DNA of 64,000 bases from an uncultured Rhodospirillales bacterium (GTDB taxonomy: Bacteria; Pseudomonadota; Alphaproteobacteria; Azospirillales; Azospirillaceae), in contig CAIXKV010000069.1 in assembly GCA_903920145.1 (NCBI GenBank), forward strand, positions 5,509 to 69,508. The letters are read 5' to 3'. Shown piece by piece: positions 4,790 through 34,825 of this stretch. Under the pieces are notes generated by a model. The model saw only the letters and a list, made by a program, of their open reading frames with translations, was not told the DNA's origin and ran no database searches. How positions within the stretch are numbered: the first letter of the stretch is position 1; every line of letters starts with the position of its first letter. Both the position numbers and the translations under genes were made by a program.

Positions 4790-5539
4790 TCATGCGGGAA
4801 CGGTACAAACCTGCTCCTTCAGCCATTCATTGAAAATTTGATCTCTAATAATATTTTTAAGTGAGTCTGTTAGTTTTGGCACATTAACTGCGTATATTTT
4901 ATAAACGGTCCACAATGAATTTTCACGAAATGGGCCTATAACCATATTATCAACGCTTTCAAAAGCTTTTTTATCAACTTCTAAAGGCAAAATACCCTTT
5001 TTAACATTACCTATATAACCTCCGGCAAGTCTTGTACTTTCATCAACTGAAAAACAACGAGCCAATTCAACAAAATCTTGCTGGTTTCCCCGTGCCGCCG
5101 CCAAAACCCGTTCGGCTTCATCTCGCGTTCGGCAAGCGATGCGAGCAACAGATACTGAAGCAAAGCGCAACGGTTCGCGACGATAAAATTCTGTAATCTT
5201 ACGCGCTGTAACCAAATGCTGCTTCAGGGCATCCCGAATCACTTCGGTACGAATCGTTTCGTACCACTGTACATCTGATATTCCATAGTAATTGAGATAT
5301 TTCTCAAAAAATTCTGGCCGATCAATACCTAAAGAAATTTTACATGATTTCGCTTTCTTCTCTACATTTTGCTCATCAAGGATTAATCCGAGTTCTTTAA
5401 ATTGCAATTTAAGCACTTTTTGTTCAATCAATTCATAGATTGATGTCCGAAATATACCTTTTAATTTCATATGAACAATCACATCACTGGTGCGAATGGT
5501 CTCGCCTTTAACTGTTGTCACCACCGCTTCAGGCTGCAT
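4790..5539 (-). CDS. parvulin/SurA-like peptidyl-prolyl isomerase
   Basis: C-terminal parvulin-like pattern (DEAERVLAAARGNQQDFVELARCFSVDESTRLAGGYIGNVKKG...GPF...WTVYKI). The ORF extends to 5557, but the ATG at 5539 is preceded by AAGGGA, so I prefer it as the start. Confidence 0.6.
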   Translation of the reverse strand: MQPEAVVTTVKGETIRTSDVIVHMKLKGIFRTSIYELIEQKVLKLQFKELGLILDEQNVEKKAKSCKISLGIDRPEFFEKYLNYYGISDVQWYETIRTEVIRDALKQHLVTARKITEFYRREPLRFASVSVARIACRTRDEAERVLAAARGNQQDFVELARCFSVDESTRLAGGYIGNVKKGILPLEVDKKAFESVDNMVIGPFRENSLWTVYKIYAVNVPKLTDSLKNIIRDQIFNEWLKEQVCTVPA

Positions 5540-8700: not shown

Positions 8701-9708
8701 TTAAGGAGGGGGCGCGGCTCTGGCTGCCATGGCTCGGTGAAGATCATCCAAAGCGCGTCGAGCTTGAGGTAACCCTTGAGCGGCGGCTTTTTCTAATAAT
8801 TCAGCAGCTTGTTTTTGGTCTCGGTTTGCACCAACCCCATTAAAAATTAAAACAGCTAAATAAAATTGGGCCGGAGCAAAACCATTGTTGGCAGACTTTG
8901 TTAACCATTGCACGGCTTGTTGATAATCTTGAGGGACTCCTTTTCCACTCCGATAGAGTTCGGCAAGATTAAAGGCGCCTTGAGGACTTCCAGAGGCGGC
9001 TGCCATACGAAAAGCCTCAGCAGCCGCCGCATAATCCAAGATTCCACCTTGACCTAGCGCTATTCGGAGCCCTTGATCTAATGGCTTCTCATGTTCAGCG
9101 ACCGGCATAGAAACTGGCGGTACTGGTAGCGCTGAAGGTAACATTGAAGTTGAAGCTGGTGTGACCTTAGTTGATGCCGAATCCCGTGGCAGAACGGGGG
9201 TGGGGAGAGGTGCCGGGGTTGGTTTAACTGCAACAGAGGTGGTGAAGGGAGATGTGCCTAAAGTTGTAGTGATCTCTGGGGCTAGATCGATAATGATTCT
9301 GTACAACCGAGTGCCCCCTTGGGGAGCTAATGTTCCGGTTCCTAAAATCCGAATTGCCTGATTGGCCTGAATAATAATTTGCCCTGTCGCGGCTTCAAAC
9401 CGATAACCAATCAATGGTCCGAAACCACGCAAGAGTAAATTAGCAGGAGGGTGCCAATCAACACCGACAATATCGATGTTTACTTCTCGGCGATTGGTGG
9501 CAAGATGCGGTGTAACTGGCACCAATGCGGTAAGGTCAAGAACAACTCTAATCTTATTTGTTCCGCTATGATCTGGATCTTTACCAAATCGAATGGCTTC
9601 AACCACAGCTTCGCTGGCTAGTGCCGGCACAATAAAACTGCTGCAAAAAAAAATTGCAGCTAGTGCCATAACTTGGTGTAAGAAATAGTCTTTCCTCTTA
9701 GGAAACAT
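8701..9708 (-). CDS. secreted AMIN-like domain + Pro-rich linker + Sel1 (TPR-like) repeat protein
   Basis: Signal peptide, then an AMIN-like pattern (IRVVLDLTALVP...REVNIDIVGVDW), then a P/T/S-rich linker. C-terminal Sel1 repeats (AFNLAELYRSGKGVPQDYQQAVQWLTKSANNGFAPAQFYLAVLIFNGVGANRDQKQAAELLEKAAAQG). The start may instead be the internal M at 9669. Confidence 0.65.
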   Translation of the reverse strand: MFPKRKDYFLHQVMALAAIFFCSSFIVPALASEAVVEAIRFGKDPDHSGTNKIRVVLDLTALVPVTPHLATNRREVNIDIVGVDWHPPANLLLRGFGPLIGYRFEAATGQIIIQANQAIRILGTGTLAPQGGTRLYRIIIDLAPEITTTLGTSPFTTSVAVKPTPAPLPTPVLPRDSASTKVTPASTSMLPSALPVPPVSMPVAEHEKPLDQGLRIALGQGGILDYAAAAEAFRMAAASGSPQGAFNLAELYRSGKGVPQDYQQAVQWLTKSANNGFAPAQFYLAVLIFNGVGANRDQKQAAELLEKAAAQGLPQARRALDDLHRAMAARAAPPP

Positions 9709-10669
9709 GCGACATTAAGACCTGTACTGTTGTTCGTTCAGGAACAGCTGGCGGCGATGGATAAAGAATAACACCAGTATCATTAACATCAACTTTAGCT
9801 TCTGGATAAACAAGCAAGACATTTTTTAATACTTGAACAAAAGACTCTCGAAATTTGCGTAATCTTGAGAATTGAGGGCCAAATTGGTTTTGAACATCTG
9901 GCCATGGAATGGTTTTTGGTTTTTGCAATGCTCGTAAGCGATAAGCTAACCATACATAAGTATCGATTGCCATTGACTGGTTGCTTATCTGTCGAATGGC
10001 TGGTTCCCAGATGGGAACGGGATGTTTGCGTAAAGCATCAAAGAAAGTTTGACTGATGACGACAGTATCTTCCCACAAGGATGGTTGGCGTGGATCGGTA
10101 TCAGTATGAAAAACGATGCCACCTTCAACAATACTATCCTTTTTAAATCCAGAATAGCGTTTTCCACCTTCAGTTTCGCCTTCCCATGAAAACCGTAGGC
10201 TGCATGCGGAAATGCGGGCTGCTTGTTCCTTGACCTCTCGGTAGGAGCGACCGCCGATGGCAATTCCCATACGCTGTAACCAATCATACATGCTGCTGCC
10301 AAGTTCGACTTCTCGGCAGTTTTTACGCAAAGCTTGGGTTTGTAAATAGAGTAAGATGAGTCTGGCTCGGGATCCGTAGGGTACACCATAAAGAACATCG
10401 CGGCCGTCGATGTAAAGACTTCCGGGATCAACGGTTAAAGACATCGGACCAACAGCCCGATGCCACTTGCCGTTTGGGGTATCAAGGGCCCGGTGGGGTA
10501 GAGAAATCATGCAAAAGCCGCTATAGGTGACACCGATTCCACCTTTTTCATCACTGAGAAAATTGTGAACTTTGTCAATCAAACGACGATCTTCGGGATC
10601 GGTAACAAGTCGCTTGGCTTGATCACGGCCAACCCGCGCAACCAGATCATGTAGTTCGCCCATGGCCAT
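9698..10669 (-). CDS. repA: plasmid-type replication initiator (alphaproteobacterial RepA / 'replication initiator protein A'-like)
   Basis: GFCMISLPHR, SRARLILLYLQTQALR and WLAYRLRAL are patterns I recall from the RPA/RepA family of alphaproteobacterial plasmids and islands. Flanked by iteron-like repeats. The ORF-track start at 10678 is TTG; the first ATG is at 10669. Confidence 0.7.
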   Translation of the reverse strand: MAMGELHDLVARVGRDQAKRLVTDPEDRRLIDKVHNFLSDEKGGIGVTYSGFCMISLPHRALDTPNGKWHRAVGPMSLTVDPGSLYIDGRDVLYGVPYGSRARLILLYLQTQALRKNCREVELGSSMYDWLQRMGIAIGGRSYREVKEQAARISACSLRFSWEGETEGGKRYSGFKKDSIVEGGIVFHTDTDPRQPSLWEDTVVISQTFFDALRKHPVPIWEPAIRQISNQSMAIDTYVWLAYRLRALQKPKTIPWPDVQNQFGPQFSRLRKFRESFVQVLKNVLLVYPEAKVDVNDTGVILYPSPPAVPERTTVQVLMSHVS

Positions 10670-10734
10670 CTCCACCAAGCTTTGGCAAGTGTCGGACGAT
10701 CACAGCAGATCTTACTGACAAAATCGAGTTGGAG

Positions 10735-11042
10735 TTTAGGGGCGCTATCGAGGGAGATCGTCTTGTGAAACCAAGGGGCTGTCGGCTTGATTTGGGGTTT
10801 AGGGGCGCAAAACAAATCCGATGTCGGCAAAGCCATAATAGGAAACACTGCGGGCTCTTGGTTGCGACTGCGGTGCCATCTGCCCGGTGTCTAACGGTGG
10901 CTTTAATGTGTCAATATGAAAGCCCAATGGCATGAGTGGGGTATAGGTTTAGGACTAAGGGGCAATGGGGTGTTTTATCCGTTATGGTTGGTTATCATTT
11001 GATAAAAAAAGAGTTACGGTTGTTTTTTTGGGATTTAGGGGC
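10735..11042. repeat. three dispersed TTTAGGGGC half-iterons upstream of repA
   Basis: Exact TTTAGGGGC at 10735-10743, 10798-10806 and 11034-11042, plus degenerate TTTAGGAC/TAAGGGGC near 10948-10972. This is the reverse complement of the core of the 11518-11681 repeats. Confidence 0.55.
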
Positions 11043-11483
11043 GTTCGAGAGCAGTAAAAAACTTACTAAAAGTTTACAGCGGATTATGTTTATCATCAAA
11101 TTAGATAAATGTTCGTCTTTATTTTTGTCATTTTTAATGGCATTATTTAAGAGTAAGCCATGGATGGGAGTAATAAATGCCGTATTTATAGGATTAAAGA
11201 TAACTTCAATAGAGACATTACAATTATATCAATCAATGGCCGATGAAATTTTTTCTGGATAAGCCATTCTTTACTGCAAACCAAGCCTAAGGAGGTGCGT
11301 TTCAAGCGACGGAGGCCGGCTTGCAACGAAAGCAAGCCCTGAGTCAAGCCGAATCAATCAAAGCCGATGTTTCAAGCTTGGTGCCGATTTCATTCCGAGG
11401 CGATCTCACTCGTTTCGGAGCAATTTCAGCAGCTCCAACCGGACAAGGAGGGTTCTAGCCGGTTGTCGGTTTGGCGTCAATGG

Positions 11484-11517
11484 TTATTTGTTTATTTGTT
11501 ACTTATTATTTGTTTGT
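11484..11517. other. AT-rich tract with reiterated TTATTTGTT units (candidate DNA-unwinding element)
   Basis: Sequence TTATTTGTTTATTTGTTACTTATTATTTGTTTGT immediately abuts the iteron array. Confidence 0.4.
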
Positions 11518-11681
11518 GCCCCTAAACCCCAGGGGATAACTCGAGTCGCGCCCCTAAAGGCCAGGTTTGCGCCCCTAATGTCCAAGTTTTTGCGCCCCTA
11601 AACCCCAGGGGATAACTCCAAAGCGCCCCCAGACCCCAGGGGATAACTCCGAAAACGCCCCTAAACCCCAGGGGATAACTT
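11518..11681. repeat. iteron-like direct repeat array (4 full 25-nt copies + 2 degenerate)
   Basis: GCCCCTAAACCCCAGGGGATAACTC occurs at 11518-11542 and 11594-11618. Near-identical copies lie at 11625-11649 (GCCCCCAGACC...) and 11657-11681. Degenerate GCCCCTAAAGGCCAGG is at 11550-11565 and GCCCCTAATGTCCAAG at 11571-11586. Each unit contains the reverse complement TTATCCCC, which is partly DnaA-box-like. Confidence 0.65.
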
Positions 11682-11691
11682 TTCAAAATCG

Positions 11692-11714
11692 CCGACTCGG
11701 TGATTCCGAGTCGG
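11692..11714. other. perfect 9-bp stem hairpin next to the iteron array
   Basis: CCGACTCGG - tgatt - CCGAGTCGG. There is no convincing T-run on the plus strand, so its function is unknown. Confidence 0.3.
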
Positions 11715-11882
11715 TGGCGTGGGGTGATGGCATTTGGCCAAAGAGTTTGTTTAAGACCAACGGCCCTAGACAATGATCCGTGCCGTTGGTATCGGCGGCG
11801 ACCGCCGCCGCGCGCCCATGTGCGCGAAGCCAAGGGCGCATCCGCTCCCTTGACCTGAGGGCCATTGTCGGCCCGGAAGCTG

Positions 11883-12272
11883 TCATGCACCCCTTTCTTC
11901 TTGAACGACGGAAATTAGCCCCGTCCCTCGAAGAAATTCCTGAACGCCGCTCCTAGGTTCTTGATGGCGTTCAACGGCTTGTGCAGGGCCATCTCGTTGA
12001 GCTTTCCATCGCCCTGGACTTGACCTCGCCACTGCCCCAATGCCCAATTCCATGCGAACCGCGCCGTTCCCGCAGACTTGGCAAAATGCGTTACCTGCCG
12101 GGTCGGCACCTCGGAACATCTCCGGACGCAACCGCGCCAGATCGTACCGCCGCTGGCCGCCCGATGTCCGTGCATCCGGCTTCAGGCGCCCCTCAGTTTC
12201 CCAGCGGCGCAACGTCTGCACCGAGACCCCAAGGGCGGCTGCCGCCTCATTTATCGTTACGAATCTGCTCAT
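11883..12272 (-). pseudogene. decayed IS607/IS605-family remnant (TnpA MerR-like HTH fragment joined out of frame to a TnpB N-terminal fragment)
   Basis: Frame 1 reads MSRFVTINEAAAALGVSVQTLRRWETEGRLKPDARTSGGQRRYDL, a typical IS607 serine-recombinase N-terminal HTH, with no catalytic domain after it. The overlapping frame (11915..12175) reads ARFAWNWALGQW...NAIKNLGAAFRNFF, which is TnpB/OrfB N-terminal-like, and then stops. Confidence 0.6.
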
Positions 12273-12316
12273 TTTAATGATGCATGAGCATATTTAGGCA
12301 GTGTCAAGACACTCTG

Positions 12317-12850
12317 CTAAAAACCCCCGTATTTGCGGATAATCGGCATGATCTCCTGTTCGAGATCATCTGGTGTCAAGGGACCGATATGCTTGTATCG
12401 GATGCGTCCCTGGCCATCGATAACGAAGGTTTCAGGGACACCATAGACGCCGAAATCAAGGGCGACCCGGCCCTCCCGATCAACCCCGATACTGGTAAAC
12501 GGGTTGCCATACTGGCCAAGCCAAGCCACAGCGTCTTCTGGTCGGTCTTTATAATTTAAACCCCGCACGGGCACGCCGATTTCGGCCAGATGACGCAGCA
12601 CCGGCTGTTCAGCCCGGCATGGCGCACACCACGAGGCAAACACAGTAAGCAGTTGGGGTTGACCCGTGGCCAGGGCTGCGCTGTCCAGGCCGACGCTTGA
12701 ACCGGGCAAGGACGGCAGGGCAAAAGATGGCACCGGCTTATCGATCAGGGCCGACGGCACCAAATGCGGGTCTCGGGTTAAGCCGGCGGCGAAATAAGCC
12801 ACCAGCGCCGCAAAAACCAGAGCCGGGAGCGCATAAAGCCATCTGGACAT
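12317..12850 (-). CDS. ccmG: periplasmic thiol:disulfide oxidoreductase CcmG/DsbE
   Basis: N-terminal anchor, WCAPC active site, and the GVYGVPETFVID motif. Lies downstream of ccmF. Confidence 0.9.
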   Translation of the reverse strand: MSRWLYALPALVFAALVAYFAAGLTRDPHLVPSALIDKPVPSFALPSLPGSSVGLDSAALATGQPQLLTVFASWCAPCRAEQPVLRHLAEIGVPVRGLNYKDRPEDAVAWLGQYGNPFTSIGVDREGRVALDFGVYGVPETFVIDGQGRIRYKHIGPLTPDDLEQEIMPIIRKYGGF

Positions 12851-12860
12851 CAGAAACCCC

Positions 12861-14870
12861 TCACCGGCTGTCGTCAGAAGAGGCCAAGGCGGGCACGAGC
12901 GGGACCGTTGGCCTACGCCGTCGCTTGCTGGGGGCTCCGATCCGCAACCGCCGATCCCCCAGACTCACCAGTCCCCCAAACACCATGACACCACAGCCCA
13001 GCCACAGCCAGGGCACCAACGGATGATGGTAAAGCCGGAGGGTCCAGCCTCCCGTTCCATCCTCATCCCCCAGCGCCAGATAAAGATCGGCGGTGCCGGT
13101 GGTACGGATGGCGGCATGGCTCAAGGGCATGCCGGTTACGGTGTAATGCCGCCGTTCCGGAGCCAGCAGACCAACCTTCCGACCATCCTGCGTCACAACA
13201 AAGGTGGCGCGTTGGGCGTCATAATTGGGACCAACAACCGGCTCGACCCCCTGAAAGCTCAGGTGATAGTCGGCGATTTCGACGGTATCGCCGGGATGGA
13301 TCACCTGAATGCGCTCCGAAACCCAAAAGGACGAGCCGGTCATCCCGGCGATGGCGAGTCCCAGGCCGGCATGGGCCAGTGTCATCCCCCAAGCCGCCGC
13401 CGGCAGCCCCGCCGCTCGCCGTAGACTGACCCTCAGCGGGGCTCGGAACAAAGCGATACGCTCGGCCCATTCGAGCCAAGCCCCAAAAAAGGCCCAAGCT
13501 GCCAGTGCCACTCCAACCAGCGCCATCACCGGCCCGCCGCCAGACTGCCAGCAGGCCACCAGGACCGCCAAGGTTGCGAGGGCCCCCACCACTGCCAATC
13601 GCCCCAGCACTCCGGCCCAATCGGCCCGCTTCCAGCTCAAGAACGGCCCAACCACCATGGCCGTGACCAGCGGGATCATCAAGGGAACGAAGGTGGCATT
13701 GAAAAACGGTGCTCCTACCGAGACTTTCCCAGCGCCAAGCACATCCAAAAACAGCGGGTAAAGTGTCCCCATCAGCACAGTCGCAGTGGCGGTGGCCAGC
13801 AGCAGATTGTTCAGAACCAGCGCCCCCTCCCGACTGATCGGAGCGAACAGACCCCCGGCTTTAAGGGCTGGGGCCCGCAAGCCATAGAGCAACAACGAAC
13901 CGCCGATGGTCACGGTCAATAGCCCTAGGATAAAGACTCCTCGGGCCGGGTCCACGGCAAAGGCGTGAACCGAACTCAAAACCCCCGAGCGCACCAGAAA
14001 AGTTCCGATCAATGACAAACTAAAGGTCAGGATCGCCAACAACAGGGTCCAGCTTTTGAGGGCGTCGCGCTTTTCGACCACGATCGCCGAGTGCAACAGA
14101 GCGGTGCCCGCCAACCAGGGCATCAAAGAGGCATTTTCCACCGGATCCCAGAACCACCAGCCGCCCCATCCCAGAGTATAGTAAGCCCACCAGGATCCCA
14201 ACGCGACGCCTAAGGTCAGGCAAGTCCAGGCGGCCAACGTCCAGGGACGAACCCAACGTGCCCAGGCCGGGTCCACCCGGCCCTCGATCAGGGCTGCGAT
14301 GGCGAACGAAAAAGCCATCGAAAAGCCGACATACCCAAGATACAGGAACGGCGGGTGCAGCGCCAAACCAGGATCCTGGAGGAGAGGGTTGAGGTCATCA
14401 CCATCAAGGGGCGGCGGATCCACCCGCGCGAACGGGTCCGAAGTGGCCAGAATGAACAGCAGAAATCCGACCCCGATCATCGCCTGAACGGCCAGCACGC
14501 GGGCCTTGAGTGGCAAGGGCAGTGATCGGCCAAACACCGCCACCGCCGCACCGAAACCGGCCAGGATCGTCACCCACAGCACCATGGAGCCTTCATGATT
14601 GCCCCACACACCAGCGATCTTGTACAGCAGCGGCTTGGTTGAGTGGCTGTTCTGGACCACATTCAAGACGCTGAAGTCCGAGACAATGGCCGCCTGAATC
14701 AACGTGGCAAAGGCAAACCCAATCAGCCCGAACTGAGCCAGCGCCGCCGGCCCGGCAACCGCCATCCAGGCGGACTCCCCGCGTTGGGCGCCGGCCAGCG
14801 GCAAGCCAGCCTGGACCAGCGCCACCACCAGCGCCAAGACAAGGGCATAATGGCCAAGTTCTGGAAACAC
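12861..14870 (-). CDS. ccmF: cytochrome c-type biogenesis heme lyase CcmF
   Basis: 669-aa polytopic protein with the WGGWWFWDPVEN tryptophan-rich motif, in ccmE/ccmG context. Confidence 0.95.
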   Translation of the reverse strand: MFPELGHYALVLALVVALVQAGLPLAGAQRGESAWMAVAGPAALAQFGLIGFAFATLIQAAIVSDFSVLNVVQNSHSTKPLLYKIAGVWGNHEGSMVLWVTILAGFGAAVAVFGRSLPLPLKARVLAVQAMIGVGFLLFILATSDPFARVDPPPLDGDDLNPLLQDPGLALHPPFLYLGYVGFSMAFSFAIAALIEGRVDPAWARWVRPWTLAAWTCLTLGVALGSWWAYYTLGWGGWWFWDPVENASLMPWLAGTALLHSAIVVEKRDALKSWTLLLAILTFSLSLIGTFLVRSGVLSSVHAFAVDPARGVFILGLLTVTIGGSLLLYGLRAPALKAGGLFAPISREGALVLNNLLLATATATVLMGTLYPLFLDVLGAGKVSVGAPFFNATFVPLMIPLVTAMVVGPFLSWKRADWAGVLGRLAVVGALATLAVLVACWQSGGGPVMALVGVALAAWAFFGAWLEWAERIALFRAPLRVSLRRAAGLPAAAWGMTLAHAGLGLAIAGMTGSSFWVSERIQVIHPGDTVEIADYHLSFQGVEPVVGPNYDAQRATFVVTQDGRKVGLLAPERRHYTVTGMPLSHAAIRTTGTADLYLALGDEDGTGGWTLRLYHHPLVPWLWLGCGVMVFGGLVSLGDRRLRIGAPSKRRRRPTVPLVPALASSDDSR

Positions 14871-14938
14871 ACAGCCTCCCTTTCGCGTCCGGTGCTTCCG
14901 TTGGAAGAACGGCGGAACAGACCAGACTCAATCCGCCC

Positions 14939-15388
14939 CTACTGAACCAAGGTCGATGTCACGTGCTGTCCTGCCCGCTTCAGCGCATCGGCAACGGTCG
15001 GCGGCATATATTTCTCGTCGTGTTTGGCGAGCACCTCATGGGCCTCAAACAGGCCATCGGGTCGCAACTGCCCTTCGGCCACAACCCCCTGACCCTCACG
15101 AAACAGATCGGGCAGAAGGCCGGTGTAGCTCACTGTCACCTTGGTCTTCAAATCAGTGATTGTGAAGCGCACGGTGGTGCCGTCGGGTTGACGCTGGACG
15201 CTGCCAGCCTCGACCAAACCACCAACCCGAATCCCGCGAATACCGGGCGGATGCTCTTGAAGGTCCGAGGGGCTGTAGAAGAACACCAGATGATCCTGAA
15301 ACGCGGTCAGGACCAAAGCCGTAGCGGTGCCAAAGCTCAACAGAACCAGAGCCAACACGATTAGGCGGCGCTTTTTCTTAGGAGTCAT
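14939..15388 (-). CDS. ccmE: heme chaperone CcmE
   Basis: N-terminal anchor, an OB-fold-like body, and the heme-binding LAKHDEKYMPP motif. Confidence 0.9.
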   Translation of the reverse strand: MTPKKKRRLIVLALVLLSFGTATALVLTAFQDHLVFFYSPSDLQEHPPGIRGIRVGGLVEAGSVQRQPDGTTVRFTITDLKTKVTVSYTGLLPDLFREGQGVVAEGQLRPDGLFEAHEVLAKHDEKYMPPTVADALKRAGQHVTSTLVQ

Positions 15389-15424
15389 GCCGGCAAATCC
15401 AAAAGAGGCTCTGAAGCAACAGCA

Positions 15425-15622
15425 TCATGACGGCGTATCGTCACGCGTGCGCCGAGACAAAGGCCGGGACGGTTGCACGGCCTCTAAGGCGGCCAACAGC
15501 CTTTGACGATGGCGCAGGGATTGAAGACTGGCTACCATCATACCGACCAACGCCAGCACCGTAACGGCATAGGCTGGCCAGACATAGGCAGCATAACCGC
15601 CCATCGCAAGAAAATTGGTCAT
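15425..15622 (-). CDS. ccmD: heme exporter protein CcmD
   Basis: MTNFLAMGGYAAYVWPAYAVTVLALVGMMV... is a typical small single-TM CcmD. I prefer this internal start over the ORF-track start at 15652. Confidence 0.7.
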   Translation of the reverse strand: MTNFLAMGGYAAYVWPAYAVTVLALVGMMVASLQSLRHRQRLLAALEAVQPSRPLSRRTRDDTPS

Positions 15623-15812
15623 GACACCACCCACAAGGGAGAGGACACCCAAAAATCGAGCGTTTCCGGGCTGTCCTTATGATAGGAGGGTGTCCTGGGA
15701 TTCGTCCAGCGCCCTTTTTCGCCATCATCCCGGTTCATGAACTTTGGAACTGGGTATTGGATCGCCCTCGGACCATTGGGTCTTGGTGTTGGCCCATCAA
15801 GGCCGGCTGGAC

Positions 15813-17795
15813 TCAATGGGCATCCCGCCAAATGACCCGCTTGCAGAGATACATCAGGCCGGAAAACAACAGCAGGAATACAATCACACGAATCCCTAGA
15901 TGCTTGCGCTGATCTTGGGTCGGATCGGCGACAAAGGATAGGAACGTTGCGACATCCTCGGCTTCCTGCTCGACCGTCGCCTTGGTGCCGTCGGCATAAG
16001 TGACGCTATCATCCTGGAGCATCTGCGGCATGCTGATCTGATGTCCGGGAAAGTAACGGTTATAATAGCGCCCCTCAATCAGCTTGAAACCATCTGGCGG
16101 CGGGTTTTGATAGCCGGTCAGCACCGCTGTAAGATAGTCCTCGCCGCCATGACGCGCCTTGACGATCAGTGACAAGTCAGGCGGAAGACTCCCGCCCATT
16201 GTGGCTTGCGCTTCTTTTTCATTAGCAAAAGGACCGATCATCCGGTCATAGGGCCGGGGCGCCCGTTTCAGGATTTTTCCTTCGTCATTGGGCTCATCAT
16301 CGACCAAATAGGGCCATTGGGCGGCAATGGTCTTGACCTGATCTTCGGTAAAACCAATCCCTTGCAAGGTGCGGAACGGGACCAGCTTCAGGGCGTGGCA
16401 GCCAGAGCAGACCTCTTTGTAAACCTGGAAGCCGCGTTGGGCCTGTTGGGGATCGATGGTGCCAAACGGGCCGGACTGGTGCCAGACATGAGCCGGAAGT
16501 TCAGGATCGGCCCAAGCATGGCCGGCCAAACTCAACATTAAGCCTCCGGCGGCCAGCAACAGCACAGCCCCGCGCACCGCTTTTTTCAAGGATAAAGCCT
16601 CCGAAAGGCTGGCCGGTACGAGGCGCGCCCTTTCGAACAGGCCAATCAACGGCATGATTATCAGAAAATAAGTAAAATAATAGCCGGTTCCGATCCGCGC
16701 CAACAGCACCCAGACTCCTTCAGGGCTGCGGGCACCGCAAAAACTAAGAACGGTTATATCAATAATGAGCAACCAAAAGAAGAAGCGGGCCGTGGGCCGG
16801 AATGTCAGGCTTCGAACTTTGGCCGTATCAAGCCAGGGCACCACAAACAAAACCAAAACCGCCCCAAACATCGCCACAGTCCCGCCGAGCTTATCGGGAA
16901 TGGCTCGTAAAATCGCGTAGAGCCATAAATAATACCACTCGGGCACAATATGCGACGGCGTGACCAGGGGATTGGCGGGGATGAAATTATCTGGATGCCC
17001 CCAATAGGTTGGCGCAAAGAAGACAAAGACCGAAACCACAATCAGAAATAAACAGCAGGCCAAGAGGTCTTTAACAGTGATGTAAGGATGAAAAGAAACC
17101 GTATCCTGTGGCATTTGCGGCTCAAGGCCGGTCGGATTGTTGCAGCCGACGACATGTAGAGCATTGATATGGAGCCCTAGGACGGCCAGTAACAGGAAAG
17201 GCAAGAGGAAGTGCAAGGAATAAAAGCGATTCAGAGTCGGGTTATCCACCGAAAAACCACCCAATAACCACGTTACAATGGAATCTCCAATTCCTGGAAA
17301 GGCCGAAAAGAGATTGGTGATGACCGTTGCAGCCCAAAAGCTCATTTGCCCCCAAGGCAAAACATAGCCCAAAAAACCAGTGGCGATCATTAAGACGAAA
17401 ATAAGAACACCAATAATCCACAATAATTCTCGAGGATTTTTGTGTGACCCATAATAAATGCTTCTGGCCATATGAATATAAATAGCAGCAAAGAAAAATG
17501 AACTAAAATTAGCATGTAAATCACGCAACAACCATCCGTAATTAACGTCTCTCATAATATGATCAACAGATGCAAAAGCCATCGCGGTGTTAGCTATATA
17601 ATGCATAGATAATAGGATGCCGGTTACAAATAGTACAGCCAGCGATAATGTCGCGATGGCTCCAAACGCCCATAAATAATTAATATTTCTGGGAACTTGA
17701 AATTTTCCATATTCATTCTGTATGAATGTAAAAATAGGTAGTCTGGTATCAATCCATTGAATCAATGGGTTATTGAATTGGGATTTATGAAGCAT
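15813..17795 (-). CDS. fbcH: fused cytochrome b / cytochrome c1 of the bc1 complex
   Basis: The N-terminal part is an 8-TM cytochrome b (PEWYYLWLYAILR). An internal signal-like segment follows, then cytochrome c1 with CSGCHAL and a C-terminal anchor. The ORF-track start at 17810 is TTG; the ATG is at 17795. Confidence 0.9.
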   Translation of the reverse strand: MLHKSQFNNPLIQWIDTRLPIFTFIQNEYGKFQVPRNINYLWAFGAIATLSLAVLFVTGILLSMHYIANTAMAFASVDHIMRDVNYGWLLRDLHANFSSFFFAAIYIHMARSIYYGSHKNPRELLWIIGVLIFVLMIATGFLGYVLPWGQMSFWAATVITNLFSAFPGIGDSIVTWLLGGFSVDNPTLNRFYSLHFLLPFLLLAVLGLHINALHVVGCNNPTGLEPQMPQDTVSFHPYITVKDLLACCLFLIVVSVFVFFAPTYWGHPDNFIPANPLVTPSHIVPEWYYLWLYAILRAIPDKLGGTVAMFGAVLVLFVVPWLDTAKVRSLTFRPTARFFFWLLIIDITVLSFCGARSPEGVWVLLARIGTGYYFTYFLIIMPLIGLFERARLVPASLSEALSLKKAVRGAVLLLAAGGLMLSLAGHAWADPELPAHVWHQSGPFGTIDPQQAQRGFQVYKEVCSGCHALKLVPFRTLQGIGFTEDQVKTIAAQWPYLVDDEPNDEGKILKRAPRPYDRMIGPFANEKEAQATMGGSLPPDLSLIVKARHGGEDYLTAVLTGYQNPPPDGFKLIEGRYYNRYFPGHQISMPQMLQDDSVTYADGTKATVEQEAEDVATFLSFVADPTQDQRKHLGIRVIVFLLLFSGLMYLCKRVIWRDAH

Positions 17796-17823
17796 TGTGA
17801 TGGCTTCCAATCTGAGATAGTGA

Positions 17824-18396
17824 TTATCCGATCCTGATTACGCTCTCACTGAGAAAACTATAATGTGGAACTGGAAGATTATAGGGCGCCGGTCCTTTGC
17901 GAATACGCCCAGAGGTATCATACTGCGATCCGTGGCAGGAGCAGAACCAACCACCGAAGTCGGGATCGCTCAGACGTAGGTTATTACCGTCAAAGATCGG
18001 AACACATCCAAGATGGGTGCAGACACCAACCAAGATCAACCATTCCGGCCTTTGAACCCGTGCCGAATCTGGTTCTGGATCCCGTAATATTGATAGATCA
18101 ACATCTTGTGCTTGCTTGATTTCATCTTCTGTCCGTCGTCGGATGAAGGTCGGTTTTCCCTGCCAAGTGACAACAATCATCTGACCGGGTTGAATTGAAG
18201 CGATATTGACTTCAACGGTGGCCAGAGCCAAAGCATCCGAGGCTGGATTCATGCTGTCAATCAGGGGCCATGCCGTTGCGGCTACGCCCGCCGCGCCCAC
18301 AGCGGCAGTCCCCAAATACAGAAAATGACGCCGATTGGGGCCATTTTGGTTCTCTTTGCTGGTACCCAGAGCCGTGGAATCAGGGGGGATCGACAT
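17824..18396 (-). CDS. petA: ubiquinol-cytochrome c reductase Rieske iron-sulfur subunit
   Basis: Tat-like RRHFLYLG, and Rieske boxes CTHLGC and CSCHGS. Confidence 0.9.
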   Translation of the reverse strand: MSIPPDSTALGTSKENQNGPNRRHFLYLGTAAVGAAGVAATAWPLIDSMNPASDALALATVEVNIASIQPGQMIVVTWQGKPTFIRRRTEDEIKQAQDVDLSILRDPEPDSARVQRPEWLILVGVCTHLGCVPIFDGNNLRLSDPDFGGWFCSCHGSQYDTSGRIRKGPAPYNLPVPHYSFLSESVIRIG

Positions 18397-31548: not shown

Positions 31549-32289
31549 ATGGCCATCGATCATCACAAGATCATCAAACCAGCCCCAGCCACGCGGCGAC
31601 GCGGCTGGGCTGGCTTTACCCTGATCGAGCTGATGGTGGTGATTGCCATCGTCGGTATTTTGGCGTCGATTGGGTTGCCGATGTACTCGAATTATGTACT
31701 TCAGAGTAACTTAAATCAAGCCTTGCCAAATATGATGGCCATTGCGGCCAAAGAGCGTACTCATTTTAATCGAACAGGTTATTACCTGGCGACAGGTGAT
31801 GAGCAAGAACTTCAACAAAAGCTTGGCCTGAATCTTCATGATCAAGGTGATTTTTGTTTTATGGTTCTTTGTGTCGCCGAAACAGGCTGGGCTTGTGGGA
31901 ATTATGATACGGGTACGGTTGGCTCCTATAATGCTTCGCCTACAAGTGCGGATTTTGGAAGCAGCGTCATTACAACCCCAGATTCTGATACGGTTACGCC
32001 GCAGTTTCAGGTTATTGCGGTACTGCGCCAGCAAGGCGCCAGCGCAGCCAGTGATCCTTCAACGGTTACGGGTAATGGATTGTCCTGTAGTGTAAGCACG
32101 AATCTTGCGAAGGCCCGTCCTAGTTCTTGGATCGCGTCTGCTGGTACTCAGGGCGGCCAAGGAAGAGTTGTCGTGTTGAGCTATCCTCAGCCTGTGGATG
32201 GAACGGCAACAGCTGTGACGATCGGCACTCACACCTCAGACCTTGTGTGGTCCAATGGCGTGACTCTTACCGACGCCCTGAGCAATTGA
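31549..32289 (+). CDS. prepilin (probable major pilin/pseudopilin) with a 22-aa leader
   Basis: MAIDHHKIIKPAPATRRRGWAG|FTLIELMVVIAIVGILASIG carries the class III signal with Phe+1 and Glu+5. The C-terminal half is Ser/Thr-rich. Confidence 0.8.
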   Translation: MAIDHHKIIKPAPATRRRGWAGFTLIELMVVIAIVGILASIGLPMYSNYVLQSNLNQALPNMMAIAAKERTHFNRTGYYLATGDEQELQQKLGLNLHDQGDFCFMVLCVAETGWACGNYDTGTVGSYNASPTSADFGSSVITTPDSDTVTPQFQVIAVLRQQGASAASDPSTVTGNGLSCSVSTNLAKARPSSWIASAGTQGGQGRVVVLSYPQPVDGTATAVTIGTHTSDLVWSNGVTLTDALSN

Positions 32290-32297
32290 CCCCGGCC

Positions 32298-33071
32298 ATG
32301 ACCCAACCCATCCGCGCCCGCTCACAATCCGGCTTTACTCTGATCGAGGTCATGATCAGTTTCGTATTGTTGCTGGTATTGATGATGGGGATGAATGCGT
32401 TATGGACTCAAGTTTCGGCTCAATTTGATCTGACGACCTATCGCGAGAAGGCTATTTTACGCCTCAGCGGAGAGATGACGCGCCTTGTTAATTTATATAC
32501 AAGTGCTGAATATGGATTTATGGACAATTATTTAACGGATACGACTGCTGTAGATTATACCAAGAATTTACCGACCGATATGGGAAGCTATATTTCTATT
32601 TCTGCAAGTTCATCAACAGTACCAGCTAATGGTAAGCGTCTTATTTATGCTCTTGGGGATGTCAAAACACCTGTTTATGTTGGCGCAGATGCGGGGACTA
32701 GTCTTTCTCAGTTTATTCAAACAATCAATCCAGATGGTACATCTCCATCGGCATCTACAGTATATAGTTACATCCTGGTGCTAGGGTCTGGGGATGCCAC
32801 ACGAAATTATGTCTGGCTTGACAATGGTGCAAGTTCAATCGTTGCACAACTAAGTTGGGATATGTACCAGATATCTTCCGACTCGCTCCCATGTTATAAT
32901 GGAAATGGAAGTGTTCCAGGTACAGGTAGTGATGGTAGATGCTATTTATTAACTGTTTATATTGATTATCCATTTCGATTTAATCGAGTCGACAATACTG
33001 TTTCTGAAATTCCTGGCATTCCCATTGATACAGTCACTGCTCAGACCATTGTTGGGAAGCTCTTCCGATGA
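32298..33071 (+). CDS. minor prepilin-type protein
   Basis: MTQPIRARSQSG|FTLIEVMISFVLLLVL. The internal ATG at 32298 is preferred over the ORF-track start at 32127, which overlaps the pilin gene. Confidence 0.75.
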   Translation: MTQPIRARSQSGFTLIEVMISFVLLLVLMMGMNALWTQVSAQFDLTTYREKAILRLSGEMTRLVNLYTSAEYGFMDNYLTDTTAVDYTKNLPTDMGSYISISASSSTVPANGKRLIYALGDVKTPVYVGADAGTSLSQFIQTINPDGTSPSASTVYSYILVLGSGDATRNYVWLDNGASSIVAQLSWDMYQISSDSLPCYNGNGSVPGTGSDGRCYLLTVYIDYPFRFNRVDNTVSEIPGIPIDTVTAQTIVGKLFR

Positions 33072-33808
33072 CATTATTAAATATAGCCCGTCATCGTGAA
33101 TCTGGGTTTACCTTGATTGAGCTAATGGTTGCCATGACCATTGGTATGATCGTGATTATGGCGGCAACTGAGTTGTTTCTTGATGCGGTTGGAGTTGCCA
33201 ACACCCTAGAACGTCAAGCCACACTGAATCGTCAAGCACGGGAAATGTATGATATTCTTTCATTGGGAGGTCATAGGATTGGAATCAACGTGACAAATTC
33301 GAATGCGAGCGTCGTTGATCCGCTTGGAAATTACGATGCGGACGTGAATTATCATTATATTTTTGGTCTTCGCGGGCGTTTTTATCAAACGTCTACAGGT
33401 AGGATGGGCTGGTCATTTCAGACGAGTCTAATGGAGGTCAGTGCATCTGGTGCGTTACTGTATAAGCTTGCGCTATACCCAACAAATAAAACGCCCACTC
33501 AAATAACAATACCTTCATATGTTATAATCGATAGCGATCAGATAACAGAGACAACATTTAACTGTAATGCGCAATACGATCCTCTTATTGAATGTGCATC
33601 GGACAGCACAACACCAACTATGTATGGATATTTCCGTTCCGACAGTTCTGCTCCTCCTTCTGGCCCGCATGCTGTTCAGAGTGTTGTTTTTGATTTATTT
33701 GATCCGGTCTATTATTCTCCCGCTCAGTTGGTCAATGAAGCCGAGGAGGATCGACGGACGGTTTATTGGACAGCGTATGCCTCTGAGATTGACAGGACTC
33801 CGCCATGA
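33068..33808 (+). CDS. minor prepilin-type protein (PilW/GspJ-like position)
   Basis: MTLLNIARHRESG|FTLIELMVAMTIGMIVI. Its start overlaps the upstream stop (ATGA). Confidence 0.75.
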   Translation: MTLLNIARHRESGFTLIELMVAMTIGMIVIMAATELFLDAVGVANTLERQATLNRQAREMYDILSLGGHRIGINVTNSNASVVDPLGNYDADVNYHYIFGLRGRFYQTSTGRMGWSFQTSLMEVSASGALLYKLALYPTNKTPTQITIPSYVIIDSDQITETTFNCNAQYDPLIECASDSTTPTMYGYFRSDSSAPPSGPHAVQSVVFDLFDPVYYSPAQLVNEAEEDRRTVYWTAYASEIDRTPP

Positions 33809-34773
33809 CTAAAATGGAACATCCTCAGCGCGGCGCTGTGTTGTTGGTCGTCATGCTGCTCATGGTGGTCTTGATGCTGATTGCTGCCGGGTTGAGCAAT
33901 TATTTTTTAACCTCTGAAGACCAAGCTGTTGAAAATCTTTTGATTGACGTTAGAACCTATTGGGCACAAATGGGTCACGTTTATTATGTCCTTAGCCGAA
34001 CTGGTGGCCAAGGCGTTTGTGGGAGTCTTGATAATAGTACTAATAATCAAAAATATTATTGCGGAACAACGTCAACATCCGCACCAACTGATGATGATTC
34101 TAATGGAACTTGCGATTCTAGCGGATCATGCGGTAAAATTAGCTCAGAATCTACCGCTTACGCGAAGTCAGATGTTTTTACCAATTCATATACTCCACCT
34201 TCTTTTACCGGACGATCATTAATTAATAATACTCCAGCTTCAAGTTTACAGAAATATTCAGTAGAATTAGATACTCTTGACAAACTGGCAAGCAGTTCTG
34301 CCCCCACTGTGATTGATCCGGGGTCAAGACGTTGGACTTTTCCACAAGATAATACTTATGGAGAATCCAATGTTACGACAGATTATTATATAACGTTACG
34401 ATCGGTTGTTAGAGATCGCAGAATGACGGACCAAAATGGTGCATTTGCATCACCGCCAAGTTATCCAGCAGACATTACGAGCAGCGCTCCGCAAAAACAC
34501 CCACAATTAAGAATGGATATTTCTGTTATTGATAGTGGAACTATGGTTTCTTCGCTTGGGCCGTCGATTAATGGTTTGAAAGACCGAGCCGACCGCCTGA
34601 CGATCGGGTTTGGTGTTACCGATAGCTATCTCTCTGACCCAGGTACTAATACATACACAAACAGAGGGTGCAATACACCATCGAATGTTACCTCATCATA
34701 TGAAGGCCAAGTTTGTATAGAATTCATCATGCGTAATGCTGATTTGCCTCTAACAAATTACATGACCCAGTAA
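33805..34773 (+). CDS. PilX/GspK-like minor component (hydrophobic N-terminus without a G|F cleavage site)
   Basis: QRGAVLLVVMLLMVVLMLIAAGL N-terminus, typical of PilX/GspK-type proteins. The body is Ser/Thr/Asn-rich. Its start overlaps the upstream stop. Confidence 0.45.
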   Translation: MTKMEHPQRGAVLLVVMLLMVVLMLIAAGLSNYFLTSEDQAVENLLIDVRTYWAQMGHVYYVLSRTGGQGVCGSLDNSTNNQKYYCGTTSTSAPTDDDSNGTCDSSGSCGKISSESTAYAKSDVFTNSYTPPSFTGRSLINNTPASSLQKYSVELDTLDKLASSSAPTVIDPGSRRWTFPQDNTYGESNVTTDYYITLRSVVRDRRMTDQNGAFASPPSYPADITSSAPQKHPQLRMDISVIDSGTMVSSLGPSINGLKDRADRLTIGFGVTDSYLSDPGTNTYTNRGCNTPSNVTSSYEGQVCIEFIMRNADLPLTNYMTQ

Positions 34774-34825
34774 ACCTAAAAACCAGCACAGACCACCCAC
34801 CCCCGACCCGACCGACGAGGATATC

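Follow-up and report, generated by a model that had tools for sequence, protein, structure and literature searches.

A RepA/iteron replication module beside the only ccm and cytochrome bc1 genes of an uncultured freshwater Rhodospirillales bacterium is probably the origin of a small chromid

The stretch of DNA analysed here (the window) comprises 64,000 nucleotides, positions 5509–69508 on the forward strand of contig CAIXKV010000069.1 (C69, ~94 kb), from assembly GCA_903920145.1 (G000). This genome is a bin of 269 contigs and 4.26 Mb, with a GC content of 58.6% and a completeness of 99%, and belongs to an uncultured freshwater Rhodospirillales genus known from metagenome bins only. Near the left end of the window lies a gene for a RepA-like protein and, upstream of it, a series of repeats, which an earlier note, made from the letters without database searches, took for an iteron-controlled plasmid-type replication origin (oriV) belonging either to a chromid or to a decayed integrated plasmid or island. 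We compared this module with its counterparts in a sister species (G001, a bin labelled uncultured Rhodospirillales) and in a more distant species (G007, a Rhodospirillaceae bin), and we used two further species of the genus, G002 and G006, to compare the context of the ccm and pet genes. Coordinates without a contig name are those of the window. The module consists of the following features:

9698–10678, minus strand: repA, encoding a RepA_C-family initiator (Pfam RepA_C, alignment to Azospirillum RepA, orthologue in the sister species)
10730–10744, plus strand: inverted iteron 1, TGGAGTTTAGGGGCG, ~50–60 nt upstream of the repA start, with an equivalent site in G001 and G007
10793–10807, plus strand: inverted iteron 2, TGGGGTTTAGGGGCG, conserved in G001 and G007
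11029–11043, plus strand: inverted iteron 3, TGGGATTTAGGGGCG; G001 and G007 likewise have a third site
10980–11260, no strand: very AT-rich spacer, up to 82% AT in 40-nt windows, in G000 only
11474–11517, plus strand: conserved GTCAATGG followed by three copies of TTATTTGTT, an AT-rich element nearly invariant in the three species
11517–11681, plus strand: six direct iterons, the inverse of the same core, four of them long (CGCCCCTAAACCCCAGGGGATAACTC type) and two short
11692–11714, plus strand: perfect 9-bp hairpin, CCGACTCGG / CCGAGTCGG, which closes the origin; G001 has a similar GACTCG...CGAGTC element

The RepA-like gene proved to be what it had seemed to be. Its product, of 326 residues when counted from the TTG at 10678 (the start is uncertain between this codon and the ATG codons at 10669 and 10663, and the sister species keeps only the last methionine), matches the Pfam family RepA_C (PF04796) over residues 99–252 with 87 bits (E = 2.4e-24; Pfam's gathering cut-off is 26); this is the hidden Markov model assignment that the earlier note had asked for. 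Annotated RepA proteins of Azospirillum plasmids, from replicons of 150–880 kb, are 51–53% identical to it. Since 98% of its length aligns to an Azospirillum plasmid RepA, at 53% identity, the protein is not truncated relative to its homologues. A relative is present in 1,099 plasmid records, and 984 plasmid records cover at least 80% of the query. A sequence search of the PDB with RepA gave no match. An AlphaFold model of moderate confidence (predicted local distance difference test, pLDDT, 76; predicted template modelling score, pTM, 0.71) has RctB domains 2–3 as its sole significant fold neighbours in the PDB (E = 5e-7, template modelling score 0.53–0.60), which for the modelled structure agrees with a two-winged-helix, iteron-binding fold; RepA_C is counted among the winged-helix initiators (bioRxiv 10.1101/2024.09.03.610885). 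The initiator family Rep_3 (PF01051) has no Pfam match in RepA, nor anywhere in G000 or G001. In G007, a Rep_3 match lies ~8 kb from the RepA origin (G007:C30:17235–17531), in a stretch without a G000 or G001 homologue that may be an inserted small plasmid.

Upstream of repA, the order of elements is inverted sites, AT-rich spacer, TTATTTGTT element, direct iterons and hairpin. The three exact TTTAGGGGC sites described by the earlier note are present at 10735, 10798 and 11034, each within a 15-nt site TGGRGTTTAGGGGCG. Inverted iteron 1 is a candidate autorepression or handcuffing site, and inverted iteron 2 is a 20-nt perfect inverse of the iteron at 11588–11607. The direct array comprises long iterons at 11517, 11593, 11624 and 11656 (25-nt copies from 11518, 11594, 11625 and 11657) and short iterons that start at 11549 and 11570, giving spacings of 32, 21, 23, 31 and 32 nt. 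The array had been described as four 25-nt direct repeats plus two degenerate copies at 21–32-nt spacing; there are indeed six direct sites, but only the first two 25-mers are exact (the third has two mismatches and the fourth has one), and the two short sites are kept almost letter for letter in three species rather than being decayed. Because 7 of the 26 occurrences of the GCCCCTAAA core in the genome (both strands, 4.26 Mb) fall within one 950-bp span, and because relaxed matches to the 15-mer elsewhere in G000 are scattered singletons, the iteron cluster is not due to chance.

Each of the three species has the direct array, the TTATTTGTT element and, close to where repA starts, three inverted sites. 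In an alignment of the three intergenic regions, a block of ~170 nt (11474–11650) is almost invariant and the remaining spacer is unalignable. Five of the six direct iterons match G001 and G007 in position and sequence, the sixth being an extra copy in G000. The three copies of TTATTTGTT span 11484–11515. They form a candidate DNA-unwinding element, and in both G001 and G007 no other 40-nt window of the origin is as AT-rich. Of the AT-rich stretches that had been noted in G000, this element is the conserved one; the tract at 10980–11260 is specific to G000, and the matching spacer is GC-normal and unalignable in the other two species. An open reading frame (ORF) within that spacer (10936–11262), without a Pfam match, was treated as spurious. 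No canonical DnaA box is conserved, with a single 8-of-9 match at 11254 in G000 only and, when at most one mismatch is allowed, none in G001 or G007. The TTATCC that ends the long iterons, once thought to resemble a DnaA box, varies in G001 and G007, and the idea was dropped. A search of the origin for integration host factor sites found nothing conserved, an Rfam scan of 9000–12600 found no RNA family and hence no known antisense control RNA, and a promoter and terminator scan found no sigma-70-type promoter above chance. The family of RepA, the iteron cluster and the conservation across three species support an iteron-controlled oriV with RepA, as originally proposed.

We next considered how strongly the initiator is constrained. 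C69-type repA was found in two other species of the genus, with protein identities of 97.5–98% in G001 and 88% in G007. Between G000 and G001, only 7 of 327 residues differ, at a DNA identity of 80%; 173 of 320 identical residues are encoded by different codons, and synonymous sites are saturated (nonsynonymous differences per site, pN, 0.017; synonymous differences per site, pS, 0.79), with a GC content at third codon positions (GC3) of 0.38 in G000 versus 0.68 in G001. RepA ranks first among the 103 orthologue pairs on its G001 contig, where the next best pair reaches 93.7%, and second among 212 pairs once a 198-kb chromosomal contig is added. In G007, RepA is 88% identical and the neighbouring genes are 45–75% identical. 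These comparisons indicate that RepA is under very strong purifying selection, comparable to that on housekeeping proteins, and that it is a working initiator with no signature of decay. Such selection on RepA and the iteron block speaks against the decayed integrated plasmid or island of the earlier note.

The same degree of conservation is found in a second RepA_C paralogue (G000:C250:6542–7480), which is 52% identical to the window RepA and shares 98% of its amino acids and 82% of its nucleotides with its counterpart on G001:C41. Since this paralogue is equally conserved, the constraint shows function and long vertical inheritance, not that one given replicon is essential, and RepA conservation is weakened as proof that the C69-type replicon is essential. 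Judging by these sequences, two or more RepA replicons of ancient date may have been passed down vertically within the genus. In total, G000 has five RepA_C genes (on C69, C250, C55, C77 and C133) and three plasmid-type parAB pairs (on C37, C125 and C77), besides the chromosomal parAB on C215, which points to a multipartite genome resembling those of Azospirillum.

In the sister species, the module lies on contig C6 of 216,921 bp, both ends of which carry the same exact 141 nt, and G001 has no further copy of this 141-mer. Assemblers that work on de Bruijn graphs with a maximum k of 141 usually leave such an exact overlap of 141 nt at the ends of a circular contig. The unique terminal overlap therefore indicates that C6 is a closed circle of 216,780 bp. 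This circle carries one C69-type repA with its origin and, ~55 kb from repA, a parAB pair whose products are 48% identical to the ParA/ParB encoded beside repA on the 882-kb replicon of Azospirillum thermophilum; the ParA orthologue on G000:C37 has the N-terminal helix-turn-helix (HTH) typical of plasmid type-Ia ParA. The earlier note was correct that no parAB genes are visible in the window, and there is no parA or parB match anywhere on C69, but the replicon does have parAB, on the circle of G001 and as a homologue on G000:C37. The circle also carries the sole ccmF, the sole cytochrome b/c1 gene and the tRNA-Pro(UGG) of G001.

Most of the G000 contig, about 70–80% of it, corresponds to this circle, with heavily scrambled gene order; at the nucleotide level, 68% of C69 aligns to it (alignments of at least 400 nt with at least 68% identity). 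Contigs C201, C10, C119, C37 and C257 of G000 also map to the circle, and the G000 contigs aligned to it over at least 40% of their length, C69 included, total 166 kb. The earlier note had proposed identifying the replicon and looking for dnaA elsewhere; besides the G001 copy being on a 216,780-bp circle, dnaA of G000 lies on C53 and the chromosomal parAB-rsmG-mnmG locus on C215, neither of them on C69. RP-C, the repABC initiator, has no match in G000, G001 or G007, although control genomes gave no match either. Gene order on the circle relative to G000 shows 32 proven synteny breaks, or 21 per 100 kb aligned; for the one chromosomal comparator contig, G001:C22, there are 7 breaks, or 5.5 per 100 kb, and order is largely collinear.

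Chromids, as defined by Harrison et al. 2010, reportedly combine plasmid-type replication and partition, core genes, and a base composition close to that of the chromosome. All of these properties were found. Replication and partition are of plasmid type, with RepA_C and iterons, and with type-Ia ParA and ParB encoded on G001:C6 and G000:C37. Core genes that are placed otherwise in relatives are present (ccmF, cytochrome b/c1, Rieske and tRNA-Pro(UGG)). Base composition is close to that of the chromosome in both species, with 63.4% GC for the circle versus 62.6% for the chromosomal contig in G001, and 57.5% for the replicon contigs versus 58.7% for the rest in G000. We conclude that the locus is probably the active oriV and initiator of a circular secondary replicon of ~0.2 Mb that qualifies as a chromid. 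Of the two options left by the earlier note, the chromid is the one supported by the closed circle with parAB and with the sole ccmF, cytochrome b/c1 gene and tRNA-Pro(UGG) of G001.

If replication follows the course established for iteron plasmids and for Salmonella genomic island 1 (SGI1), RepA monomers would occupy the five or six direct iterons, and the bound RepA would open the adjacent element of three TTATTTGTT copies, at which the host helicase and replisome would then be loaded. By the same analogy, the inverted sites by the repA promoter would serve autorepression and the pairing of origins (handcuffing), which would hold the copy number near that of the chromosome, and ParAB, encoded elsewhere on the replicon, would segregate it.

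The module is flanked by the following features:

8701–9708, minus strand: gene for a Sel1-repeat envelope protein (Pfam Sel1), the start of which overlaps the repA stop (9698–9708)
11749–11839, no strand: copy of a dispersed short repeat resembling a miniature inverted-repeat transposable element (MITE) or repetitive extragenic palindrome (REP), outside the origin (BLAST)
11883–12330, minus strand: remnant of an IS607-like insertion sequence (IS), with part of a MerR-type HTH transposase and a TnpB-like fragment (Pfam MerR and HTH_17; NCBIfam IS607 transposase N-terminus)
12317–18396, minus strand: ccmG, ccmF, ccmE, a small ORF, a cytochrome b/c1 fusion and Rieske (NCBIfam, Pfam)

G001 likewise has the Sel1 gene downstream of repA, with an identity of just 53%, and G007 lacks it at that position, indicating that it is accessory and lies outside the minimal replicon. 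On the other side, ccmG ends at 12317, 636 bp from the last iteron, and cytochrome b and Rieske lie at 15813–18396, in agreement with the distance of about 600 bp and the nearby bc1 operon described before. ccmG, ccmF, ccmE, cytochrome b, Rieske and tRNA-Pro(UGG) are each present in a single copy in G000, and all are on C69. The sole tRNA-Pro(UGG) gene (C69:258–334) lies 5.2 kb upstream of the window start and adjoins an operon for a sulfhydrogenase-like NiFe hydrogenase, a pairing that recurs on the G001 circle.

These core genes appear to be later arrivals on the replicon. In G002, G006 and G007, ccmEFG and petABC are on separate contigs, among genes without homologues on the circle, and the ccmEFG genes of G006 and G007 lie between homologues of G000:C247 and homologues of C96. 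Since G007 has the RepA replicon but carries its ccm and pet genes elsewhere, the plasmid seems to predate its core cargo. A single 665-residue ORF encodes cytochromes b and c1 as a fusion in G000 (15813–17810) and likewise in G001; the two have genes of their own (cytochrome b, 426 residues) in G002, G006 and G007. The fusion coincides with the move onto the RepA replicon. As far as gene content and placement can tell, the ccm and bc1 genes appear to have moved onto an older plasmid in the common ancestor of G000 and G001. A fuller history, to which we give an even chance of being right, is a plasmid-to-chromid transition within the genus: an older RepA plasmid would have gained, in that ancestor, the sole ccmEFG, cytochrome b-c1 in its new fused form together with Rieske, and perhaps tRNA-Pro(UGG), and so have become indispensable; since then its gene order would have been shuffled ~4 times faster than that of the chromosome while its content was kept, and its initiator would have changed as slowly as the most conserved housekeeping proteins.

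Several points weigh against an active chromid origin. G000 is a draft of 269 contigs, and the circularity and separateness of its own copy are taken over from the sister species. The sole experimentally tested RepA_C replicon is SGI1, which belongs to another branch of the family. The origins of the three species have no conserved DnaA box, the extreme conservation of RepA is shared by the paralogue on C250 and G001:C41, and the comparison of rearrangement rates rests on one chromosomal contig. GC skew, which the earlier note had suggested inspecting around 11.5 kb, has no clean inflection at the origin in the window, nor on the G001 circle, where the origin is nearer the cumulative maximum than the minimum; because skew amplitude is tiny and gene order is scrambled, this neither supports nor refutes an origin. 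Lastly, what joins the origin to ccmG in the contig is a dispersed repeat together with an IS remnant.

That join was examined together with the mobile elements around it. In G000, the 0.6-kb gap between the origin and ccmG consists of the dispersed repeat copy and the IS607-like remnant; in G001, the origin adjoins a sigma-54 activator gene instead. A gap filled by mobile pieces and a different neighbour in G001 indicate that the adjacency of origin and ccmG is a lineage-specific rearrangement within the replicon, in which a later IS-mediated event in G000 would have left only 0.6 kb between the origin and the ccm and bc1 genes. The IS remnant that the earlier note cited in support of an island therefore does exist, but what it marks is a breakpoint of rearrangement within the replicon. 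The dispersed repeat (55–91 nt) gives 504 BLAST hits spread over 222 of the 269 contigs; with 302 of the hits no further than 200 nt from the end of a contig, it is a main cause of the fragmentation of the G000 assembly. IS607-like elements are likewise present in many copies: an IS607-like end terminates C69 (C69:94258–94398), C10, C201, C79, C266 and other contigs, and C96 has a related fragment at its start, beside genes whose counterparts border ccm in other species.

The low GC content to the left of the join had also been offered as support for an integrated plasmid or island. The genes of window positions 1–11.5 kb encode an ATP-binding cassette (ABC)/C39 exporter, HlyD, parvulin, a sigma-54 activator, a hypothetical protein, the Sel1 protein and RepA. 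All are orthologous to, and largely syntenic with, genes of G001, at 43–98% protein identity, and their GC3 is 0.28–0.50 in G000 versus 0.65–0.82 in G001, with 0.33–0.38 versus 0.65–0.75 in one of the comparisons. Since the G001 orthologues are syntenic and GC-normal, the low GC reflects a synonymous AT drift of the lineage and not foreign DNA, and we rejected base composition as a sign of foreign origin. The tract spans C69:5463–17200 and its GC3 shifts abruptly at both ends, from ~0.35 to ~0.6 across a copy of the dispersed repeat at each (C69:5238–5292 and C69:17257–17347). It could have arisen through an effect of origin proximity on mutation, through recombination that replaced the tract with DNA of a lower-GC relative, or through a join made in the assembly. 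Smaller low-GC3 patches are also present on chromosomal contigs of G000. The same lineage-specific AT drift at synonymous sites is seen at window positions 32100–34800.

A different explanation for these observations would be that the replicon, or the RepA/iteron module, is integrated in the G000 chromosome as a cointegrate or decaying island, with an origin that is silent or redundant. The draft is fragmented enough for linkage to the chromosome to be conceivable, the abundant IS607-like elements and dispersed repeats could mediate cointegration, an IS remnant abuts the origin, and GC skew gives no origin signature; moreover, a comparable move of secondary-replicon DNA into the chromosome has been discussed for Azospirillum humicireducens (bioRxiv 10.64898/2026.09.14.751567). 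By contrast, a closed circle carries the orthologous module of the sister species, purifying selection on RepA and the iterons is very strong, the low GC is lineage drift in orthologous genes, and the ORFs scanned in C69:1–17.5 kb include no integrase or att-like boundary. In addition, most of C69 maps to the circle and no chromosomal block was identified within it, segments unmatched to the circle having been left unexamined. We consider integration unlikely.

Alternatively, the assembly could be chimeric, with the 12-kb low-GC segment carrying repA and the origin misjoined to the ccm and bc1 genes through repeats, in which case the 0.6-kb adjacency would be artificial but the origin would still be real. 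The segment (C69 ~5.4–17.2 kb) is indeed bounded on both sides by dispersed repeat copies, with the GC3 jump at these boundaries, and its right-hand junction is not syntenic with the sister species. However, the left-hand junction, at which the hydrogenase lies beside the ABC exporter, is syntenic there, the segment and its flanks encode proteins equally diverged from G001, other low-GC3 patches occur on chromosomal contigs of G000, and the sister species has repA and the ccm and bc1 genes on one circle anyway, making a misjoin very unlikely. Finally, we consider it extremely improbable that the locus is an SGI1-like integrative mobilizable element, a RepA_C/iteron replicon dormant in the chromosome that fires only after excision. 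SGI1 does combine a RepA_C gene with an iteron oriV, with an HTH_17 gene preceding, and on the far side of the iterons here there is an ORF whose product has MerR and HTH_17 domains. However, that ORF is the N-terminal remnant of an IS607 transposase, which recurs at the ends of many contigs and has no counterpart in G001 or G007, C69:1–17.5 kb has no integrase among its ORFs and no excisionase or trmE-type insertion site was found, and the module is vertically inherited across three species and located on a 217-kb circle.

An active origin on a chromid has consequences beyond this locus. It would mean that an uncultured freshwater lineage has a multipartite genome, with a RepA/iteron chromid of ~217 kb that carries indispensable respiratory genes and a tRNA gene. 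Binning and completeness estimates are affected, since a circle lost from a bin takes "core" functions with it. The three species, with one closed circle, make up a dataset on the change from plasmid to chromid, on the rate at which gene order is scrambled, and on the constraint on initiator and iterons. The compact, conserved origin of ~1 kb could also become the backbone of a vector for Rhodospirillales.

Among known systems, repABC replicons encode their RepC initiator in an operon with repA and repB (parAB); parAB in G001 is ~55 kb from repA and not in an operon with it. The Rep_3 iteron plasmids (F RepE, R6K pi and pPS10 RepA) resemble the module in having direct iterons beside an AT-rich unwinding element and inverted sites at the rep promoter, but there is no Rep_3 match here, and the significant fold matches include neither RepE nor pi nor pPS10 RepA. 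RctB, which acts at ori2 of Vibrio cholerae chromosome 2, is likewise the initiator of an essential secondary replicon and binds repeated sites, as RepA would; however, sequence identity is 10–12%, RepA (326 residues) lacks RctB domains 1 and 4, and no 39-mers, methylation-dependent 12-mers or crtS logic of the ori2 kind were seen. In SGI1, a RepA_C gene and an iteron oriV drive replication, and deleting rep or oriV abolishes it (PMC7433901). SGI1 rep (S003) and its oriV share with the module a RepA_C initiator and GC-rich iterons of ~17 nt beside AT-rich tracts with short repeats. By contrast, SGI1 is an island that stays integrated and does not replicate until a helper induces its excision; it has an oriV of four iterons downstream of rep, whereas the module described here is the resident origin of a stable circle, without excision genes.

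The closest parallels are the RepA/iteron replicons of Azospirillum (150–880 kb), whose initiators belong to the same family, with 51–53% identity over the full length. Azospirillum secondary replicons have dense iteron groups together with remote sites in the opposite orientation, which are thought to limit copy number (bioRxiv 10.64898/2026.09.14.751567). In both cases the origin lies upstream of or around repA, with dense 14–18-nt iterons and remote opposite-orientation sites, parAB can be far from repA, housekeeping-type genes lie beside repA, and the genome is multipartite; 15-nt sites in both orientations around repA are also present in A. brasilense p5 and in the 882-kb replicon of A. 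thermophilum. Measured against the Azospirillum type, which has at least three dense iterons near repA with remote opposite sites, as well as one or more DnaA boxes in the origin, the module has six direct and three inverted iterons but no conserved DnaA box. Further differences are the iteron itself (TGGGGTTTAGGGGCG here versus TGGAGTCTTGTCGCG in Azospirillum), the position of the sites, which flank repA in A. brasilense p5 and are all upstream of repA here, the host, an uncultured freshwater Rhodospirillales genus, and the small size of the replicon (~217 kb), which nonetheless carries the sole bc1, ccm and tRNA-Pro(UGG) genes. The architecture is therefore a known one, that of the RepA/iteron secondary replicons of Rhodospirillales, of which the C69 module is a further example. 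What sets it apart is an initiator constrained at the level of housekeeping proteins, a very small chromid with the sole bc1 and ccm genes, and a record, within one genus, of how these genes were acquired.

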